Shown here piece by piece: positions 1,140-17,920 of a DNA stretch of 21,298 bases. The notes beneath the pieces were generated by a model that was not told the DNA's origin, searched no databases, and worked only from the letters and a program-made list of their open reading frames with translations. The first letter of the stretch is position 1, and every line of letters starts with the position of its first letter. This DNA is from an uncultured virus (IMG/VR IMGVR_UViG_3300047157_000146) (taxonomy: Duplodnaviria; Heunggongvirae; Uroviricota; Caudoviricetes): the IMG/VR virus record IMGVR_UViG_3300047157_000146, one strand, 5' to 3'. Both the position numbers and the translations under genes were made by a program.

Positions 1140-2045
1140 CTATTGTAGGTTTCCCACCATCCATGATACAAGTAATTTAGGGGTCATGTTGTGGGAACGC
1201 CATTCTCCTTCTCCAATTACTCGTAGGAATTTCAGTTTTTTGTTGCTATCCATTTCCGAAGAAACGATATAATCATGCAACCCTATGCAAATCTCCTTAG
1301 TGGAGATTCCTTCATAGATTAGATTGTGTAGATTTTTCAGTGCTTCGTTTGGATTGTTATTCAATATGTTCATTGTAATTTGTTCGTACTTTTTGAGGCC
1401 CTTTTCGATTTGAGTCGTCAGTCGTATGCCGGATGCGACTGATGCCTGTAGTTCGGTAAGTGTCCTTCTCATATCACCGTTGAAGGCATATATAAACGAC
1501 CTAATTTCTTCGGGGACCGGATAATTTTCCGCCTCTAGGATTTTGACAATTGCTTCTTCAATCACTTCAAAGGTTAGGTTTTTGAAGAAGTAATTAGCAC
1601 AACGAGATTGTAGAGCATAGATAATCTTGTTTCGATTATTACAAGTAATGATGAATCGTATATTTGATTCATAACGCTCCATCAATCTCTTAAGTGCGTT
1701 TTGTGCATCATTAGTCATACCATCCATTTCATCTAACAAAACCATTCTAAATGGGACATCTCCAATAGCGGAGTCCTGTGCTATACTCTTTATTTTAGTC
1801 CTAACAGTTTCTAGCCTCCTATCATCGGAAGCATTAATCTCAAAAAAGTTAGAAGTAGAATCCTCACCTAGAAGGGCTTTTGCCAAGGCAACTGCGGCTC
1901 CTGTTTTACCAGTTCCCGAATTACCATAAAGCAAAAGGTTAGGGCATTCCTTATTCAAAACCCAATGTTCAGCATCCATGACAAAATGTTCTTGTCCCAA
2001 AACATCGGATAATTTACTCGGTCTGTACTTTTCAGTCCATAGCAT
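1140..2045 (-). CDS. rfcS: Replication factor C small subunit (clamp loader)
   Basis: N-terminal WTEKYRP...DVLGQ, Walker A GNSGTGKT, EINASD, Walker B LLDEMD, AQNALKRLME, SRC arginine finger, GDMR sensor 2. Confidence 0.95.
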   Translation of the reverse strand: MLWTEKYRPSKLSDVLGQEHFVMDAEHWVLNKECPNLLLYGNSGTGKTGAAVALAKALLGEDSTSNFFEINASDDRRLETVRTKIKSIAQDSAIGDVPFRMVLLDEMDGMTNDAQNALKRLMERYESNIRFIITCNNRNKIIYALQSRCANYFFKNLTFEVIEEAIVKILEAENYPVPEEIRSFIYAFNGDMRRTLTELQASVASGIRLTTQIEKGLKKYEQITMNILNNNPNEALKNLHNLIYEGISTKEICIGLHDYIVSSEMDSNKKLKFLRVIGEGEWRSHNMTPKLLVSWMVGNLQ

Positions 2046-2564: not shown

Positions 2565-2749
2565 TTTTTATTCCTCCAGCCTTGTTCTATGCTAATTAAG
2601 TCAGCATATCTAGGTAGAATCTTGCTCAGTTCGGGCATAGTAATACCCCACTTTAGTTTCTTATTCAAGTAATTGTAAATTTCGTCAGTTGTTTTTGGTC
2701 CTGTTTTCAAATACCTTTTTAGATGCCTAATGGCTACAACATTGGCCAT
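2561..2749 (-). CDS. Small winged-helix protein, DUF3860-like (paralog 3)
   Basis: LKRYLKTGPKTTDEIYNYLNKKLKWGITMPELSKILPR matches the same pattern. It overlaps both neighbouring genes at their start/stop codons. Confidence 0.6.
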   Translation of the reverse strand: MANVVAIRHLKRYLKTGPKTTDEIYNYLNKKLKWGITMPELSKILPRYADLISIEQGWRNKN

Positions 2750-3594
2750 TAGAAATCACCAAACGAAACAGGTTTTATTTCTTTCTTCTTGTGTTTTCTT
2801 ATTCTCTTCTCTCCTAATCCAAGTAGTCTGCATTCCGCATTGTTCAACTTAGTCTTAGCAAAGTTAGAAAACTCCTCGCTTTTGAGAAGTTGCTTAAGTA
2901 CCCTTTCATCACTACCTTTCAAACCTAATCTTCTACATAGGCTAGGCACTTTAGAGTAGGGGCGGCGTTGGGGCATTCTCGGTCTTGTAAATGTTTTACC
3001 GCTATGAGAATAGGCTAACATCTCTTTAAAATAATGAGAAGGCCATCTTCTTTTTACAATAGTGTCTATGAATAATAGACGGTTAGGGTGAATGTTTTCA
3101 GCCAACCAACTTATGATTTGGACATCCGGTGGATTATTGAATTGTATCAGTTCTAGTACCTTTTCTCTATCACTTTCTTTTAGGTAGTCTAATACTAGAG
3201 AGAATACATCTCGTTCTAAATTATTAGGTTCTTGACTTCTAGGGGCGAGTTCTGCAAACTGTTCTTGCCTGTAATTTATCTTACCTGCTCTTTTTATCTT
3301 AACCATATTTTTTATTTCATTTGGTATTGATTTTTGATTGATGCTGGTTAGAATGATAGTCCCCCGATACTTTCTCAAAACATTTAGAATTTCATCTGTT
3401 TTTGGTTTATAGTGTACTTCTTCTATAATGATTCCCAAGTCTAAAGGAAAGGAAAGAACATCTCTTATTGCCATCTCATCAGCATAAAGAACAAGGGCAT
3501 TGGGTAGCATTTTATTAGCCGTTGTTGTTTTCCCTGTGCCGGTTTTCCCAACAATTATAATTGGCTTATCTCGTTTAATCGTAGTCAGTGCCAT
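2749..3594 (-). CDS. P-loop/AAA+ ATPase, probably a shortened RFC large-subunit-like clamp-loader partner
   Basis: Walker A VGKTGTGKTT, Walker B-like IIIEEVH, IILTS sensor-1 strand, helical C-terminal region and basic tail. It lies near rfcS. Confidence 0.6.
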   Translation of the reverse strand: MALTTIKRDKPIIIVGKTGTGKTTTANKMLPNALVLYADEMAIRDVLSFPLDLGIIIEEVHYKPKTDEILNVLRKYRGTIILTSINQKSIPNEIKNMVKIKRAGKINYRQEQFAELAPRSQEPNNLERDVFSLVLDYLKESDREKVLELIQFNNPPDVQIISWLAENIHPNRLLFIDTIVKRRWPSHYFKEMLAYSHSGKTFTRPRMPQRRPYSKVPSLCRRLGLKGSDERVLKQLLKSEEFSNFAKTKLNNAECRLLGLGEKRIRKHKKKEIKPVSFGDF

Positions 3595-3991
3595 TTATTA
3601 TTCCTCTTATTTTCATTATTTTTTCTATCCCAACTAGGGTTAGGTGTTTTTTGTCAATTAGCATTTTAACTATGACATTGTGTTCGTGAATGTGATTCTG
3701 TAATTTAATTAAGTGTTCGGGAATTAGGTTCATTAACCTATCATTATTTTTTATTCCACTAATTCTTAATATTGGTCTTGGTCTTTTTTTGTTTTCTTTT
3801 TCTACTATGTTATTTACAATTCCATATAGAAAAAGAGTTTTACTGATTTGGCTCAGTAAGGGTAGTTCTCCCCGCATTAAGATTAAAGGTCTAACACTAT
3901 AACCGAGTCTAGAGTTTTCACTCCTAAACAATTCAATATTATAGGTTGGTTTGACTAAAAGAATACCAATTAAAGTATTTTTATTCAGCAT
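3575..3991 (-). CDS. LAGLIDADG homing-endonuclease-like protein lacking the catalytic motif
   Basis: GYSVRPLILMRG...LLSQISKTL...LRISGIK...KKHLTLVGIEKIMKIR resembles a single-domain LAGLIDADG fold. The position of the LAGLIDADG helix reads TLIGILLVKP, with no acidic residue. Likely start ATG 3991. Confidence 0.55.
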   Translation of the reverse strand: MLNKNTLIGILLVKPTYNIELFRSENSRLGYSVRPLILMRGELPLLSQISKTLFLYGIVNNIVEKENKKRPRPILRISGIKNNDRLMNLIPEHLIKLQNHIHEHNVIVKMLIDKKHLTLVGIEKIMKIRGIINGTDYD

Positions 3992-4301
3992 ACCTAACCA
4001 CTGCACCTATGTATTCGTTTTTTTGTTTGAGTGCTGTAACTACATTCGCTATAATAAATGCTTCATAGTCCAATTTTTCTCCAGATATAGTCAACACTAA
4101 TCTTCCTTCATAAGGACTCTCGTTTAATTCTTCTAGATGTATTGTGCTTTCTGCCTTTATGTTTCGCCTAATCATCATCTCAGTGCTTAAGTGGCCTATA
4201 GCATAAGCATCAATAATTTTCATTTTCTCTGATAGGTTGAAAACGAACTGTGTTGCTACTCCATGGTCAATGATTAATTGTTCTGCTATAGGTGTAGTCA
4301 T
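3981..4301 (-). CDS. Hypothetical protein
   Basis: 106-aa ORF packed between its neighbours, with AGGTGA upstream. Confidence 0.65.
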   Translation of the reverse strand: MTTPIAEQLIIDHGVATQFVFNLSEKMKIIDAYAIGHLSTEMMIRRNIKAESTIHLEELNESPYEGRLVLTISGEKLDYEAFIIANVVTALKQKNEYIGAVVRYAE

Positions 4302-5801
4302 TTACAAATCACCTACAATAGCCTGTATTTCTTGTACTGTGCTAGAATCTATTGCATATTTGTCATTTCGTATCGCATGTATCCTCGCTAGTTTCAAAGA
4401 ATATTTGTCATTCTTTTTCATTATTAGTTCTGCTTTTATGTGTAATACTATTCTAGGCATAAATGAATACTTAGATTCATCTGCTTTAGAAACTAATTTT
4501 CTAAGCATGTTAGAAAGCAATTTATGATTTATAGAAGAAAGCCCCGATACATAACCAATGGATATGTATTCGTTGTCACCCCTATAGGCTATTTCAAAAC
4601 TAGAGAAGGCGTTTTTAGAATCTACCTTTGCCCCTATTACAACTAAGTATAAGTCTATTCTAGGAGGGGAATAAATCACTAATGAATCCGATTTTTCATT
4701 TGGTTGATATTTTGCATCCATGTCTTTGATGAGAATCCCATCGAAACCATCACTGATTGATTGGTTGTAGAACGCTGTAGCGTCCTCATTTTCTTCGGAC
4801 CTAATAGGGAGGCATGGAAGGGTTTCCATCGTTTTTAGCCTAGTAGAAAACGGCATATCTAGCAAACAATTGCCACCCATAGAAAGACAGTCTAGGATAA
4901 CATACCTCAAATTGCTAGGTTCGGGGGTTTTCTTGTGTAGTATTTTCAAGACTTCATAGTAATCTATGGGCTTTTCATCTCCGTCAACACAATACAATTC
5001 GGCATCTAAAATAAAATCAGATGGGCAATCTAGAATTTCCTGCTTCGTTTTCATTGGCAAGTTTAGTAGTTTGCCTTTTCTGTTAAAGAAAATTATATTA
5101 TCCTTTTTCTTATGAATCTGCACTCTTATTCCACTATATCTGTATTCACAAATAGAGTTAGTGGGTTGTCCATTTAACCTAGAATAAGATTTACCTAACA
5201 TAGGTGGAACAAACAAACCATGTTTTGTTTTGTTTGTCAATTTTCTATTACTAGAATAAGCATAATACATAGTTTCTAATTCGTGCATTTTAGAATCCTT
5301 TTCTACATATGATGGCTCCAAATCAAAGTGCTTGCTTAGAACATTAATTATGATTCTTTTTCTATCCATTTTTAGTTTCGGTTCTCTAACCCAAAAAGAA
5401 ATGAACCATTTTCTTTCTAGGGAAGAGAGGCTTTCAATGACCTCCGAGAATAACTCAAAAGAACCACTTTGCCTACAGTCCATTTCTAAAAGACGCATGA
5501 CCATATTCAAACTATAGTCAGCAGATTTTTGTTTATCACGCTCAAGGCTAAATATCCCCTTTCCTAAATTATCTCCGTATACTTCCAACTCTTCAACGAA
5601 TATGCCGAAGTGTTCGCAAATCCACTTTTTGCTTTTGTGTTTTCCTATGTGAGAACTATCCAAATCTAGAGTTAGAATCTTTAGTAGTTGGAGTGGGTTT
5701 ATGTGTTTAGAACCAAATGCTTGAAGAATTAGTCGAGTCTGTTGCGCTGTTGTTTTCCTTTGCATCGTTTCGCAAAGTCTTGCTAGATGGCTCATTGTCA
5801 T
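4302..5801 (-). CDS. ATP-dependent DNA ligase homolog (DBD-adenylation-OB) with a degenerate active site
   Basis: PMLG, motif I EYRYSGIRVQIHK, FFNRKG, motif III ILDAEL, IIIa ILDCL, IV DGILIK, IDLYLVVIGA, IGYVSGLS and VI ARIHAIRNDK are all in order. The catalytic Lys of KxDGxR is replaced by Arg. Confidence 0.85.
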   Translation of the reverse strand: MTMSHLARLCETMQRKTTAQQTRLILQAFGSKHINPLQLLKILTLDLDSSHIGKHKSKKWICEHFGIFVEELEVYGDNLGKGIFSLERDKQKSADYSLNMVMRLLEMDCRQSGSFELFSEVIESLSSLERKWFISFWVREPKLKMDRKRIIINVLSKHFDLEPSYVEKDSKMHELETMYYAYSSNRKLTNKTKHGLFVPPMLGKSYSRLNGQPTNSICEYRYSGIRVQIHKKKDNIIFFNRKGKLLNLPMKTKQEILDCPSDFILDAELYCVDGDEKPIDYYEVLKILHKKTPEPSNLRYVILDCLSMGGNCLLDMPFSTRLKTMETLPCLPIRSEENEDATAFYNQSISDGFDGILIKDMDAKYQPNEKSDSLVIYSPPRIDLYLVVIGAKVDSKNAFSSFEIAYRGDNEYISIGYVSGLSSINHKLLSNMLRKLVSKADESKYSFMPRIVLHIKAELIMKKNDKYSLKLARIHAIRNDKYAIDSSTVQEIQAIVGDL

Positions 5802-5952
5802 TATCTTCCACCTTTACTTCTTCTACTCCAGCCGTGAATATTTTAGTATTTACGAGTTTAATCAGTTCTTCTATGTATTGGTATTTACCCTGTCTTGTTG
5901 TTTTAAGAAACCAAAGATAACTCGCTAGTTCAATCCATTCACTCTTCTTCAT
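5707..5952 (-). CDS. Hypothetical protein overlapping the ligase start
   Basis: Likely start ATG 5952 (MKKSEWIELASYLW), overlapping the end of the upstream gene. It overlaps the ligase 5' end by about 95 nt. Confidence 0.45.
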   Translation of the reverse strand: MKKSEWIELASYLWFLKTTRQGKYQYIEELIKLVNTKIFTAGVEEVKVEDNDNEPSSKTLRNDAKENNSATDSTNSSSIWF

Positions 5953-6896: not shown

Positions 6897-8426
6897 TCAC
6901 TCAAGAAGAACTGCTACATCGGTTGTTAAAAACATCATCGCAATAGAGAAGGCCGCAGAAACGCTACTCTTTGTGACAAGAGTGGGGTCAATAATTCCAT
7001 CCTCTAAAAGATTGGAAATGGCTATTGTCTTAGCATTAAAGCCTTGACTTCCTCCTTCCATCCAACCAGTTAATACCTGTTTGTCCTCTAGTTCATACTC
7101 ACAATTATTCAAGAGAGTTTCTATTGGTGCGGAAAGTACATCTTTAGACATGAAATCATCGGAATGTATTTCATGTTTCCAATATGGATAATATTGTGAT
7201 AGAGTTAATCCCCCGCCAACAATATATCCACCATCCAATGCCGCCTTAGTAGCGTTAAGTGCGTCGTCAAGTCTTTCCTTAGTATCTCTCATTTCAACAG
7301 AAGAACCAGCACCCACACGAATTACTGCGATACCTCCGCTAAGTCTAGAGATTCTTTTAGAGATGCTTTCCTTCACGAAGTCATTCGTACCTAATTCGTG
7401 GAGTTTTCTCAAGGCTTCTATTCTTTCAACAACTGCCTCTCCTCCATCTCCACCAATGATAGTAGTCTTGACTTTATCAATCACGACCTTAGTGCAACTA
7501 CCTAGAGTATTTTCATTGACTATTCTTAGGTCGTCGTCTGCTTCTTCTGCATAGGCTTTACCACCTACTACTGCAATCAAATCCTTTAGTTCGTCTAGTT
7601 GGGCGTCACCATAGTTTGGAGTTTCAATTACTCCCACATCAAGCCTACCTTGTGCCACATTCAATAGCACATTTTGTAGTGCTAGGTTCTGCAATCCTCT
7701 ACAGACTAATAGCAGTGGCCTTCCTTTTTGTGAAGCATATTCACAAGCAGGTAGAATATCTTGGAACTTTCTAATGATTTTGTTAGTGGATAGGATGAGT
7801 GGATTTTCTAAAACACAATCTCCATTATCCCGATTAGCAAACAAGTGACTAATGTAGCCGCTCTCTAATTCTAATCCTTCCTTAATCTCAAAAGAAGTAT
7901 TCAAGTCTAGACTTTCCTCGACTGAAACTACTCCGTTTCTACCAACTGCTTTGAAAACCTCGGCAATAAGTTCACCTAGTTTCTCATCATTGTTGGCCGC
8001 AATAGTAGCAATCTTTTGAATATCATCGTCAACGACGGGGATGCTTCTACTATCCAAATAGCCAAGAAGACCATCTCTAACATCTGTTAGGTAGGTTCTC
8101 CATTCGTGAATACTTCTATCATCTCTAAATTCGTGTAGCGATTTACACAATGCCCTAGCCAAAATACAGGCAGTAGTAGTACCATCACCTGCTTTTGATT
8201 GGGCCTTTGATGCTAGGTCTTGAACGAGTTGTACTCCCAACTGAACATAGGGGTCTTCGGAACGGACATATTTAGTGATAGTCACTCCGTCATTTATGAC
8301 AACTGGAGGGTTGCCTTGTAGAATAACGGTCTTCGCTTGTGGCCCAAATGTTGGGGCTACAGTATCAGCGACTAAACTAATGCCCTCTAGCAGTTTCTCC
8401 CCTACTTCCTTTCCGTTTAGAATCAC
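6897..8426 (-). CDS. groEL: Group I chaperonin GroEL
   Basis: PTFGP, INDGVTI, AGDGTTTACILA, IATIAANND, EGLELESGYIS, RLSGGIAVIRVGAGSSVEMRDTKERLDDALNATKAA, GIIDP. Probable GTG start at 8426 after GGAGAGG; the ORF-track start is 8459. Confidence 0.95.
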   Translation of the reverse strand: MILNGKEVGEKLLEGISLVADTVAPTFGPQAKTVILQGNPPVVINDGVTITKYVRSEDPYVQLGVQLVQDLASKAQSKAGDGTTTACILARALCKSLHEFRDDRSIHEWRTYLTDVRDGLLGYLDSRSIPVVDDDIQKIATIAANNDEKLGELIAEVFKAVGRNGVVSVEESLDLNTSFEIKEGLELESGYISHLFANRDNGDCVLENPLILSTNKIIRKFQDILPACEYASQKGRPLLLVCRGLQNLALQNVLLNVAQGRLDVGVIETPNYGDAQLDELKDLIAVVGGKAYAEEADDDLRIVNENTLGSCTKVVIDKVKTTIIGGDGGEAVVERIEALRKLHELGTNDFVKESISKRISRLSGGIAVIRVGAGSSVEMRDTKERLDDALNATKAALDGGYIVGGGLTLSQYYPYWKHEIHSDDFMSKDVLSAPIETLLNNCEYELEDKQVLTGWMEGGSQGFNAKTIAISNLLEDGIIDPTLVTKSSVSAAFSIAMMFLTTDVAVLLE

Positions 8427-8542
8427 TCTTCTTCCTCTCCTTTGTTTTTTAGATACCAATTATAGAATAAATCCATTCTTTCTCTCGCTGATTGGCGGGT
8501 TATGATGTAATATAATTCTCTATACATTCCTTCATACTTCAT
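8423..8542 (-). CDS. 39-aa small ORF between groES and groEL
   Basis: MKYEGMYRELYYIITRQSARERMDLFYNWYLKNKGEEEE*. It has an ATGA overlap with the groES stop and a GTGA overlap with the groEL start, and fills the gap exactly. Confidence 0.6.
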   Translation of the reverse strand: MKYEGMYRELYYIITRQSARERMDLFYNWYLKNKGEEEE

Positions 8543-9597: not shown

Positions 9598-9902
9598 TCT
9601 TCATTCCTCCATTGTTCTTCTGTGTAGTCTTCATCAAAATCATGCAAGTGCTTGTAAGTAGTGCCGTTATTCTTAGTGACTTCCATCATGTCCTTTGCGA
9701 ACTTGCAGCCAAGTTTTCTGTCTTCTTGATACAGCCGTATGAAAGTGAGTACACCCTCGTAAGACCCCCACTTACTATCCATTCTTTCAATGTGATATTT
9801 TAGGTCGGCGGCAGAAACATAACCCTCTTCGACACCATCAATGAGCATTCGATGATTGAGATAACCAAGCAGGTATTCAATGCCGTCGTCGCTCATAGTC
9901 AT
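9594..9902 (-). CDS. Hypothetical protein
   Basis: 102-aa ORF, tightly packed, with an acidic tail. Confidence 0.6.
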   Translation of the reverse strand: MTMSDDGIEYLLGYLNHRMLIDGVEEGYVSAADLKYHIERMDSKWGSYEGVLTFIRLYQEDRKLGCKFAKDMMEVTKNNGTTYKHLHDFDEDYTEEQWRNEE

Positions 9903-10217
9903 TCAAATCAACTCCTTGAGTATGTTCCAAGATGAATTGTAAATACGATGATTGGTATAAGAACTCATGGCGTCAAGTGCTTGTTGAATGCCTTCACGCA
10001 ATCGCTCGACTTCTGCGAGGGCTTCAATGTACTTCTTCAAAATCTCATTGTCTCCTTTAACTGCTTCGGCCAGTGTATCGTTTTCTTCACGCAACCGCTT
10101 GACTTCTTCAAGGAGAAGTGGTGCGTCTGCTATGAGTAATTTATTTGCCTCGTTAGCCATATTTACTTTCGTGCCTTCCCAATTATCATGTCCTTCGTAT
10201 TTGTCTGTGTCAATCAT
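9903..10217 (-). CDS. Hypothetical coiled-coil protein (MIDTDKYEGH family, copy 1)
   Basis: Shares MIDTDKYEGH and DAPLLLxEVKRL with the adjacent ORF. It has an internal second LAEVERLRE. Confidence 0.65.
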   Translation of the reverse strand: MIDTDKYEGHDNWEGTKVNMANEANKLLIADAPLLLEEVKRLREENDTLAEAVKGDNEILKKYIEALAEVERLREGIQQALDAMSSYTNHRIYNSSWNILKELI

Positions 10218-10560
10218 TCAATCATCTCCTCTTGCTTCATCATTACATATTCATAGACGCTACCCATGTAGCCTTGTGATACTGAATCAAGCCATTCTTG
10301 ATAGGTGTCATTATCCTCTTCAGAATCCTTTGGAGAGAAGTCAGCAATAATGTCCCGCAGTTCTTTGTGTTCTTGTTCATACATCTGCAACCGCTTGACT
10401 TCTGCGAGCAGTAGTGGTGCGTCATGCAATAGTTCGGAGGTAGCCTCATATTGTTCAGTCGTTTCAGCGTTCTTTAGCATCCACTTAGACCAACACCAAG
10501 GTAGTCTTTCGTCTGCTCCGCTTGCTAAGTGTCCTTCGTATTTGTCTGTGTCAATCATTC
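10189..10560. repeat. 31-bp perfect direct repeat (10189-10219 and 10530-10560) plus a 17-bp repeat (10091-10107 and 10387-10403)
   Basis: TGTCCTTCGTATTTGTCTGTGTCAATCATTC occurs twice. GCAACCGCTTGACTTCT occurs twice, with a diverged third copy near 9997-10013. Confidence 0.9.
10214..10558 (-). CDS. Hypothetical protein (MIDTDKYEGH family, copy 2)
   Basis: The first 10 aa are identical to 9903..10217, and it contains HDAPLLLAEVKRL. Confidence 0.65.
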   Translation of the reverse strand: MIDTDKYEGHLASGADERLPWCWSKWMLKNAETTEQYEATSELLHDAPLLLAEVKRLQMYEQEHKELRDIIADFSPKDSEEDNDTYQEWLDSVSQGYMGSVYEYVMMKQEEMIE

Positions 10561-17063: not shown

Positions 17064-17135
17064 TTTAATTCCTCATTATTAGGCATTGCACCTTTCCGGT
17101 AGTCATTGATAGCACTACTACACTATTTGAATGAG

Positions 17136-17210
17136 TGGAACAAACAGGATTTGAACCTGTGGTCACTCGGTTATGAGCCGAGAGCATTAACCAAACTATG
17201 CTATTGTTCC
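17136..17210 (-). tRNA. tRNA with CAU anticodon (elongator Met or Ile2)
   Basis: GGAACAA/TTGTTCC acceptor, GCAT/ATGC D stem, CTCGG-CTCATAA-CCGAG anticodon arm, ACAGG-TTCAAAT-CCTGT T arm, discriminator A, no encoded CCA. It lacks the three G-C pairs of an initiator anticodon stem. Confidence 0.93.
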
Positions 17211-17215
17211 GTAGG

Positions 17216-17298
17216 TGTCGAAGGCAGGATTTGAACCTGCGAACCATTTAGGACAGGAGTTTAAGCCCTGCGTGTTTGACCTACTCCACCACTTCGAC
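17216..17298 (-). tRNA. tRNA-Leu(UAA)
   Basis: GTCGAAG/CTTCGAC acceptor, CAGGG-CTTAAAC-TCCTG anticodon arm, long variable region, GCAGG-TTCAAAT-CCTGC T arm, discriminator A. Confidence 0.93.
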
Positions 17299-17300
17299 AT

Positions 17301-17375
17301 TGGCGAGCGCAACAGGAGTCGAACCCGTATCACCGGCTTAGAAGGCCAGTATGCTATCCATTACACCATGCGCTC
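17301..17375 (-). tRNA. tRNA-Arg(UCU)
   Basis: GAGCGCA/TGCGCTC acceptor, CTGGC-CTTCTAA-GCCGG anticodon arm, ACGGG-TTCGACT-CCTGT T arm, discriminator G and encoded CCA. Confidence 0.93.
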
Positions 17376-17609
17376 ATTTGTCAATTTCCATATATTGACA
17401 GAATAACTGTACTGACTAAATTCAGCAATTACTCTTTCGGTTCCAATCTTTTCAAATTGTTTGTGTCGAGATAGAAGATTACCAATCTTACTACCACCCG
17501 AAGCCTCCTTCGGCCAGCGATTTTGATACTCGTCTAGTATCTCCGCCGTGTTTTTACTTCCATTTTCTAGTATTTTCTCTAATCTTTCGATTGTTCTCTT
17601 GTTTGCCAT
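17361..17609 (-). CDS. Small winged-helix protein, DUF3860-like (paralog 4)
   Basis: Likely start ATG 17609. RLEKILENGSKNTAEILDEY...IGNLLSRHKQFEKIG...VNIWKL. The last codons overlap the 5' end of tRNA-Arg. Confidence 0.65.
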   Translation of the reverse strand: MANKRTIERLEKILENGSKNTAEILDEYQNRWPKEASGGSKIGNLLSRHKQFEKIGTERVIAEFSQYSYSVNIWKLTNERMV

Positions 17610-17623
17610 ACCGCCACCATGCT

Positions 17624-17920
17624 TCACATGATGCTCCAATTCAAAAGATATTCGGCGTTGCCATTAGCAACACTATACTCTAAGGCTCTAACAGATTCTT
17701 CTTCATGGTGGTTTCTTTCCACTATAATAGAGGCAAGACAAAGACCTAGCCTCTCCTTAGAAAGTTTCTCGGACAGTACGCTAGCAATCTTAATTGCTAG
17801 TTCTTCTTTCAAACGCTCCTCCCACATTAAACAGTAGCAGGGTTCTTTGTAGAGAACATCATGGGTATGACACTCTACAATTCGTTCCCCTGTTCCATTA
17901 CATTCATTGCATTCGCTCAT
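17624..17920 (-). CDS. Hypothetical protein with an N-terminal CxxCxGxG zinc-finger motif
   Basis: MSECNECNGTGE...EPCYC, with an ATGA overlap upstream. Confidence 0.6.
   Translation of the reverse strand: MSECNECNGTGERIVECHTHDVLYKEPCYCLMWEERLKEELAIKIASVLSEKLSKERLGLCLASIIVERNHHEEESVRALEYSVANGNAEYLLNWSIM

Follow-up and report, generated by a model that had tools for sequence, protein, structure and literature searches.

The window analysed here is a stretch of 21,298 nucleotides from an uncultured virus of the Caudoviricetes (IMG/VR record IMGVR_UViG_3300047157_000146), and its positions 4302 to 5801 encode, on the minus strand, a full-length homolog of the Lig1-type ATP-dependent DNA ligases. 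Judged from its sequence, this protein is a pseudoenzyme: its catalytic residues are lost, its gene is intact and purifying selection acts across its orthologs. The lysyl-AMP intermediate of ligation would not be able to form, because the motif I lysine expected at position 221 is an arginine and because the motif V lysines, the motif IIIa phenylalanine, the motif IV glutamate and several phosphate-binding basic residues are gone. We consider it somewhat probable (about 0.55) that the protein now serves as a non-catalytic, DNA-gripping component of the viral replication or repair machinery, with sealing done by a second viral ligase or by that of the host. A preliminary description of the window had proposed a ligase that is dead but exapted. 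This proposal is supported by the conservation of the losses, by the synonymous variation of the arginine codon and by a ratio of non-synonymous to synonymous substitution rates (dN/dS) of 0.10–0.13. For brevity, the protein is called the dead ligase below, and homologs with all canonical motifs are called active.

Gene, Domains and Predicted Fold

The gene is an uninterrupted open reading frame (ORF) of 499 codons in both the ORF list and the translation. Its parts, all on the minus strand, are as follows.

4302..5801, minus strand: dead Lig1-type DNA ligase homolog of 499 aa (ORF translation, PF01068, AlphaFold, Foldseek); stop codon at 4302–4304
5217..5801, minus strand: N-terminal DNA-binding domain (DBD), residues 1–195; weak PF04675 match, all-helical in the model
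4662..5216, minus strand: nucleotidyltransferase (NTase) domain, residues 196–380, with a dismantled nucleotide pocket according to the motif alignment
5139..5141, minus strand: codon AGA for Arg221, the site of the adenylated motif I lysine, read in the window and in its orthologs
4662..4691, minus strand: motif V region SDSLVIYSPP, residues 371–380, where active orthologs read S.GWAKYKPP
4305..4661, minus strand: OB-fold domain, residues 381–499, with motif VI altered to LKLARIHAIRNDK; R473, R478 and K481 are retained

Residues 200–373 match the ATP-dependent DNA ligase domain PF01068 in Pfam with an E-value of 8.3e-22 (78.3 bits, cut-off 26.2). The N-terminal (PF04675; E 8e-4) and C-terminal (E 0.03) ligase domains yield sub-threshold matches only. 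The top PDB sequence match found with phmmer is the P. furiosus ligase 2cfm (E 1.3e-21), and the PHROGs match is a generic ligase family only. Among GenBank phages, a megablast search with the gene returned no match and tblastn a single distant one. The AlphaFold model, based on an alignment of 54 sequences, has a pLDDT of 92.4 and a pTM of 0.79. Foldseek aligns the entire model to three-domain ligases of archaea and humans (E ~1e-32 to 1e-25), including 2cfm, 3rr5, 3gde and 1x9n as well as human Lig1, Lig3 and Lig4. The top TM-scores (0.70–0.74) are obtained with DNA-bound human Lig1 complexes in the closed, DNA-encircling state. The DBD-NTase-OB architecture is present in the full-length model, even with the terminal Pfam domains below their cut-offs. 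The earlier claim of a full-length 499-aa ligase with all domains therefore holds, as borne out by the ORF, the Pfam match of the middle domain and the full-length structural alignment.

Catalytic Motifs

We aligned the motifs of the window protein with those of 45 viral homologs and four cellular ligases; after exclusion of the 208-aa fragment L044 from 47 loci, 46 loci were examined. Motif I, encoded by gaa tac aga tat agt gga ata aga with the AGA codon at 5141–5139, reads CEYRYSGIR in the window protein versus xDYKYDGNR in active orthologs (Lys to Arg, Asp to Ser), so that EYRYSGIR stands in place of the KxDGxR signature with its adenylated lysine. Arg226 of the same motif is retained, and is a Lys in L003 and L006. 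Motif IIIa reads ILD versus FD in active orthologs (Phe to Leu303), and motif IV reads DGILIK versus EGIxVK (Glu to Asp354), with Lys359 retained in the window protein and replaced by Arg in its relatives. In motif V, SLVIYSPP stands against WAKYKPP in the 37 active orthologs, and both lysines of the xxKxK pattern are gone. Motif VI is LKLAR...RNDK in the window protein versus LRFPR...RDDK. When the motif III Glu, the aromatic residue of motif IIIa and the EGxxxK of motif IV are taken together, only Glu268 and, in the window, Lys359 are left. The basic residues R287, K369 and R370, kept in active forms, are missing as well, and no replacement lysine is conserved throughout the dead clade. Without its motif I lysine, a ligase cannot be adenylated, and later ligation steps require the two lysines of motif V. 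In characterised ligases, steps 2 and 3 also depend on the equivalents of R287, K369 and R370, of the Phe in motif IIIa and of the Asp in motif I, as they do on the motif V lysines.

These data agree with the preliminary description on motif I (EYRYSGIR, Arg221 encoded by AGA at 5139–5141, Asp to Ser), as read from codons and alignment, on the Asp for Glu exchange in motif IV (Asp354) and on the replacement of the motif V lysines by LVIYSP. Its listing of the motif III sequence DAE as a defect was mistaken: Glu268 is retained in the window protein, and DAE also occurs in the motif-intact ligase of L041 and in the structural-module ligase discussed below. Across 29 distinct active viral orthologs, 127 alignment columns reach a conservation of 93% or more. 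Of these columns, the four distinct dead sequences retain 17 out of 26 in the DBD, 35 out of 69 in the NTase domain and 13 out of 32 in the OB domain.

Distribution of the Losses and Phylogeny

The dead motif set occurs in nine of the 46 loci (L001–L009). L001 has essentially the same sequence as the window, and L002–L009 are ~75% identical to the window protein, comprising three distinct nucleotide sequences and the truncated L007. The motif I arginine and the absence of the motif V lysines are common to 8/8 of these other orthologous loci and are under purifying selection, and hence do not represent a lineage-specific decay of the window, an option that the preliminary description had left open. 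All of the remaining viral loci from IMG/VR (37/37; 30–38% identity) retain every canonical motif. At codon 221, the sampled active relatives encode Lys by AAA or AAG, where the dead clade has AGA or AGG. Identical substitutions are seen in contigs from many samples.

An exhaustive representative search added sequences with intermediate or independent losses. P0021 (41% identity) has entirely intact NTase motifs and is altered in motif VI alone. In P0007 (54% identity), the motif I lysine is still present, but motif I is without its Asp, motif IIIa without its Phe and motif V without its lysines. Degeneration is also seen in P0027 and, to a still greater extent, in P0036. A maximum-likelihood tree was built from 28 rows (P0001, P0003, P0005–P0008 and P0021–P0038 minus the fragment P0034, plus five cellular ligases). 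It recovers the topology (P0021,(P0007, dead clade)) with support values of 100/99 and places P0027 and P0036 elsewhere within the same larger clade. Since the two degenerate groups are separated in the tree by the intact P0021 and by P0007, which still has the lysine, the Lys to Arg exchange in motif I arose at least twice. Searches of viral contigs found no relatives of P0027 and P0007. A metagenome scan found the P0027 lineage in five TARA contigs, of which L065–L068 were analysed. This second dead lineage (also P0170; L065 3360–4748) occupies the same syntenic slot in another magrovirus group. Its motifs read HYRYDGHR, DGK, ID, SG..IK, WINYSPK and LRHPY, with motif I Lys to Arg and motif III Glu to Lys. 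No stop codon or frameshift is present in the window, in L001–L009 or in L065–L068.

Selection and Divergence

Whole-gene dN/dS in the dead clade, estimated by the Nei-Gojobori method, is 0.10–0.13 at an unsaturated synonymous divergence (dS) of 0.45–0.72. Between the window and other members of the clade, dS is saturated and dN is ~0.15. Fisher tests of synonymous versus non-synonymous changes against neutrality give p <= 6e-36 for the whole gene and p <= 4e-9 for the NTase domain alone. By domain, dN/dS is ~0.08 in the DBD, 0.07–0.08 in the OB domain and 0.14–0.23 in the NTase domain, which is the most relaxed of the three and still far below 1. Active orthologs at comparable divergence range from 0.04 to 0.15, apart from two pairs at 0.35; neighbouring genes range from 0.014 to 0.26, and the second dead lineage from 0.03 to 0.15. 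The degree of constraint on the dead ligase is thus similar to that on the nearby clamp loader or chaperonin genes, with a somewhat relaxed catalytic domain.

Divergence of the ligase was compared among 33 distinct loci for pairs in which the replication factor C (RFC) clamp loaders are 70–75% identical, with the following ligase identities.

Active versus active pairs: 61.7% (n = 11)
First dead clade versus active pairs: 39.6% (n = 31)
Second dead lineage versus active pairs: 44.6% (n = 10)

Surface Charge

The net charge of the DBD is +4 to +7 in four dead-clade sequences and +2 in P0007, compared to a mean of -1.2 in 29 active viral orthologs. That of the OB domain is +5 to +8 in the dead clade, P0007 included, compared to a mean of -2.6 and a maximum of +2 in the 29 active orthologs. 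The NTase domain of the dead clade carries less positive charge. Overall, 30 basic positions are gained and 13 are lost in the dead clade, four of the lost ones lying in the DBD.

A Second, Motif-Intact Ligase

The preliminary description had raised the question of an active ligase elsewhere in the genome, and an active-looking one is found in the genomes of relatives. A second PF01068 ligase, encoded by an ORF of 828–979 aa, is present in the dead-clade relatives G002 (89,940 bp, rated 100% complete), G003 and G004. In the two of these three genomes that were inspected (L051 and L049), its motifs are KYDG, DAE, EGVVIK and KW[VI]KWKK. The protein has 979 aa in G004 (L049 331–3270) and 828 aa in G002 (L051 331–2817), a difference that is due to ~150 additional residues inserted in the N-terminal part, ahead of the NTase domain. 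According to the available parts of the original magrovirus description, magroviruses of groups A and B encode two ATP-dependent ligases, one in the replicative and one in the structural module, and the replicative-module ligase of group A belongs to a ‘thermostable ligase’ family (Philosof 2017, PMC5434244). Both ligases are also present in 4/5 active-type records. Possession of two ligases is therefore the ancestral state, and the loss of catalysis was confined to the copy in the replicative module.

Genomic Context

Based on gene content and on related IMG/VR genomes of 90–96 kb, the window is assigned to the replication module of a group-A-like magrovirus, i.e., a virus of marine group II archaea. 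Its marker genes and the immediate neighbours of the ligase are as follows.

1140..2045, minus strand: RFC small-subunit-like clamp loader (PF00004, PF13177, PF08542), marker of the replicative module
2749–3594: AAA ATPase, by profile match
3575..4006, minus strand: 143-aa single-domain LAGLIDADG-fold protein, the next gene downstream, with orthologs in active-type genomes too
3981..4301, minus strand: 106-aa ORF with a ferredoxin-like alpha/beta fold, whose ATG directly abuts the ligase stop codon
5707..5952, minus strand: small ORF (MKKSEW.ELA.YLW...LVN.KIF) that fills the 137-nt gap upstream of the ligase
6897..8459, minus strand: thermosome-type chaperonin (PF00118, E 5e-37), marker of magrovirus group A or D

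According to the available parts of the same source, a thermosome gene is characteristic of groups A and D (Philosof 2017, PMC5434244). The window further encodes a PC4-like ORF, a pyrimidine-dimer glycosylase, a ThiF-like protein, a TFIIB-type zinc-ribbon protein and a UvrD-type helicase. Gene-by-gene BLASTP comparison of L002, L005, L006, L011, L020, L031, L033, L041, L043, L065 and L071 places the ligase between a conserved 119-aa ORF on the thermosome side and the AAA ATPase on the RFC side, in dead-type and active-type genomes. Given this conserved gene order, the dead ligase is an ortholog of the active ones and not a stray paralog.

The 106-aa ORF is conserved in L002 and L006 (57–58%), L071 (32%) and L020 (24%) and diverges fast. 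It is modelled with a pLDDT of 86.7 as a beta-alpha-beta-beta-alpha-beta fold, to which no PDB entry corresponds specifically (best E 8e-4, TM <=0.52). An assignment as a ‘mini-TFB’ was not confirmed, as the model is a generic ferredoxin-like fold. The 143-aa ORF has no Pfam match, and its ESM Atlas model reaches TM 0.77–0.81 to LAGLIDADG_1 clusters. The small ORF at 5707–5952 runs ~95 nt into the ligase start in a different frame, and tblastn finds its N-terminal ~45 residues conserved in 10/12 loci, including distant active-type genomes.

Compared with L002, the dS of the window runs from 1.1 to saturation in the genes of the block 2749–5801 (AAA ATPase, LAGLIDADG-like ORF, 106-aa ORF and ligase). 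In the flanks, dS is 0.025 in the thermosome gene 1 kb away and 0.21 in RFC. The genome is mosaic, and this pattern points to recombination that replaced the 2749–5801 block by a divergent allele.

Between a RecA/Sak4-like ATPase and the PolB gene lies a 277-aa ORF (L001 13613–14446; L006 17232–18065), which is conserved across the loci (42 ORFs); on position and length alone, it is a candidate viral sliding clamp. It has no Pfam or PDB sequence match, and a Pfam search for the PCNA family PF00705 found no member in G002 and G007. At RFC identities of 70–75%, the candidate is 47% identical in active-type pairs versus 40% in dead-versus-active pairs. A specific co-divergence with the dead ligase was rejected, since the candidate evolves fast in active-type pairs too.

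A cluster of three tRNAs at 17135–17375 (minus strand) comprises Met(CAT), Leu(TAA) and Arg(TCT). The last of these decodes AGA, the codon of Arg221, which is probably a coincidence. Leu and Arg tRNAs are on record for group B magroviruses in the available parts of Philosof 2017 (PMC5434244). Four small paralogous ORFs at 2032–2749 and 17361–17639 (minus strand) start similarly (KHKRLQN.I...LE..G); two of them match DUF3860 weakly (E ~3e-4), and they have a small winged-helix-type appearance. The adjacent ORFs 9903–10217 and 10214–10558 (minus strand) share the N-terminus MIDTDKYEGH, which suggests a tandem duplication, and a contig from an RNA library connects positions 9895 and 10207 on opposite strands. 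A scan for sigma-70 promoters and terminators gave 11 sites versus 9.1 expected, hardly more than by chance. Contigs from one metatranscriptome library are 100% identical to 4584–4745 and 4753–5018, a weak hint of expression, as DNA carry-over is possible. Of the sampled words, 28% are present in the RNA run X1, whose contigs cover parts of the ligase gene only, so that the gaps in coverage carry no information.

Possible Role of the Dead Ligase

An intact, folded and constrained gene that two independent lineages kept after residue loss speaks for a selected non-catalytic function of the ligase body. We propose that the replicative-module ligase of group-A-like magroviruses turned into a pseudoenzyme with a pocket unable to form lysyl-AMP. 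Strong purifying selection preserves its three-domain, DNA-encircling fold, and acts most strongly on the DNA-binding and OB domains, which gained positive charge. The protein would grip DNA at nicks, ends or duplex as a scaffold or sensor, and sealing would fall to the ~830-aa structural-module ligase or to the host ligase. DNA binding, membership of the replisome and the division of labour are what we infer from this combination of data.

Several observations weigh against this proposal. The second ligase is shown only in relatives of the virus represented by the window, and the genomes G005 and G006 (52–54% complete) show the dead ligase only. The closed conformation of the model may stem from the AlphaFold training set. 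Basic positions 135, 153, 161 and 167 of the DBD, conserved in active orthologs, are lost in the dead clade, so that by alignment the canonical DNA contacts appear remodelled rather than simply kept. Moreover, a DBD loop of cellular ligases is deleted in all viral homologs, active or dead; this loop is presumably the carrier of the PCNA-binding motif in the Pyrococcus ligase. Finally, the motif-intact P0021-type ligase is only 38–40% identical to others at RFC identities of 75–81%. Part of the excess divergence of the dead ligase therefore predates the loss of catalysis, since a motif-intact ligase is equally diverged.

A bolder version of the DNA-gripping role is possible, though doubtful. 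At least two conversions would have turned a replicative ligase into a dedicated, non-sealing, ring-shaped ‘nick clamp’ that recognises breaks or genome ends. The convergent Lys to Arg exchange would then keep a phosphate-binding cation in the pocket and abolish adenylation, and the protein would hold such sites, either for the separate structural-module ligase or out of its reach. Unsealed nicks or ends, or the timing of their sealing, would in that case be a selected step of viral replication or packaging. It is rather unlikely that the protein acts instead as a decoy or in counter-defence, titrating host PCNA, ligase partners or a nick- or end-sensing defence, or shielding viral nicks and ends from nucleases. 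The heavily remodelled surface, with its 30 gained and 13 lost basic positions, the recurrence of catalytic loss and the divergence island formed by the ligase and its downstream neighbours (saturated dS versus 0.025 in the thermosome gene), common in genes under host conflict, would fit such a role. However, no sign of diversifying selection accompanies them (dN/dS 0.06–0.13), the high dS of the island points to recombination and not to fast protein evolution, and the gene keeps its place inside the replication module.

Still less probable is a ‘prozyme’ function, with the dead paralog activating, targeting or restraining an active ligase, either the second viral one or that of the host, through heterodimers or the transfer of nicks. 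Such ligases work as DNA-encircling monomers, and the two viral ligases belong to different families and lie ~46 kb apart in different modules, although dead and motif-intact ligases do coexist in G002, G003 and G004. Activating dead paralogs are known in other enzyme families, such as the trypanosome AdoMetDC prozyme, as far as the available parts of the source go (PMC5201418). An altered chemistry, namely sealing or processing of pre-adenylated nicks only (step 3), removal of 5'-AMP or the use of another nucleophile or nucleotide, appears quite improbable. The adenosine-contacting residues Glu268, Arg226 and, in the window, Lys359 persist, and motif I lysine mutants of the Chlorella virus ligase reportedly still seal pre-adenylated nicks. 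Nevertheless, the motif V lysines, the motif I Asp, the motif IIIa Phe, R287, K369 and R370 are all gone, with no clade-wide replacement lysine. A decaying pseudogene or an assembly or sequencing artefact, for which the excess divergence of the ligase over its neighbours (39.6% versus 61.7% at RFC 70–75%) might speak, is close to refuted. The reading frame is open in both dead lineages, dN/dS is ~0.1 (Fisher p <= 6e-36), the same substitutions recur in contigs from many samples, the model is confidently folded and, as a weak point given the possible DNA carry-over, metatranscriptome contigs match parts of the gene at 100% identity.

Relation to Known Ligases

Archaeal Lig1-type ligases (2cfm; Thermococcus 3rr5, 4eq5 and 9dfa; A. 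fulgidus 3gde) have the same DBD-NTase-OB architecture and fold as the dead ligase, and share with it the motif III Glu, several structural glycines and Arg473, Arg478 and Lys481 of motif VI. At ~20% identity, the dead ligase differs from them in that the lysine to be adenylated, both lysines of motif V, the Phe of motif IIIa, the Glu of motif IV and the DBD loop are missing. The replicative-module ligase of group A magroviruses (PMC5434244) occupies the same slot with the same neighbours and is of the same family, but the 37 IMG/VR orthologs (30–38% identity) keep every catalytic motif, unlike the dead ligase. In the available parts of that paper, ligases are described as enzymes and inactivated forms are not mentioned (Philosof 2017, PMC5434244). 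A description of a natural, conserved dead DNA ligase was not found in the literature searched, outside of which lie most subscription journals and the supplements of Philosof 2017.

The closest analogue of the proposed role is engineered. As far as the available parts of these reports go, Lig4 without catalytic activity still has a structural role, and sealing is done by Lig3 (PMC11754673, PMC9638927), so that a non-catalytic body is combined with sealing by another ligase (see also PMC10858965). Yet the inactive Lig4 forms are point mutants made in the laboratory from a eukaryotic ligase that acts in repair and has BRCT partners, whereas the dead state in magroviruses is natural, multi-residue, fixed and conserved. 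The structural-module magrovirus ligase (L051, L049), finally, shares the PF01068 NTase domain (E 1e-27) and the genomes with the dead ligase, but it represents another family: its N- and C-terminal extensions are unrelated, and it matches neither PF04675 nor PF04679.

DNA ligases are usually regarded as pure enzymes. A natural, conserved and recurrent dead ligase would demonstrate that selection can act on a non-catalytic function of this fold, so far hinted at only by the engineered Lig4 mutants. Automatic pipelines name such proteins ‘DNA ligase’ and thereby overstate the sealing capacity of these genomes. Magroviruses are reported, in the available parts of their description, to be among the most abundant marine viruses (Philosof 2017, PMC5434244). 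They carry a near-complete archaeal-type replisome, and the dead ligase would offer a handle on its organisation.

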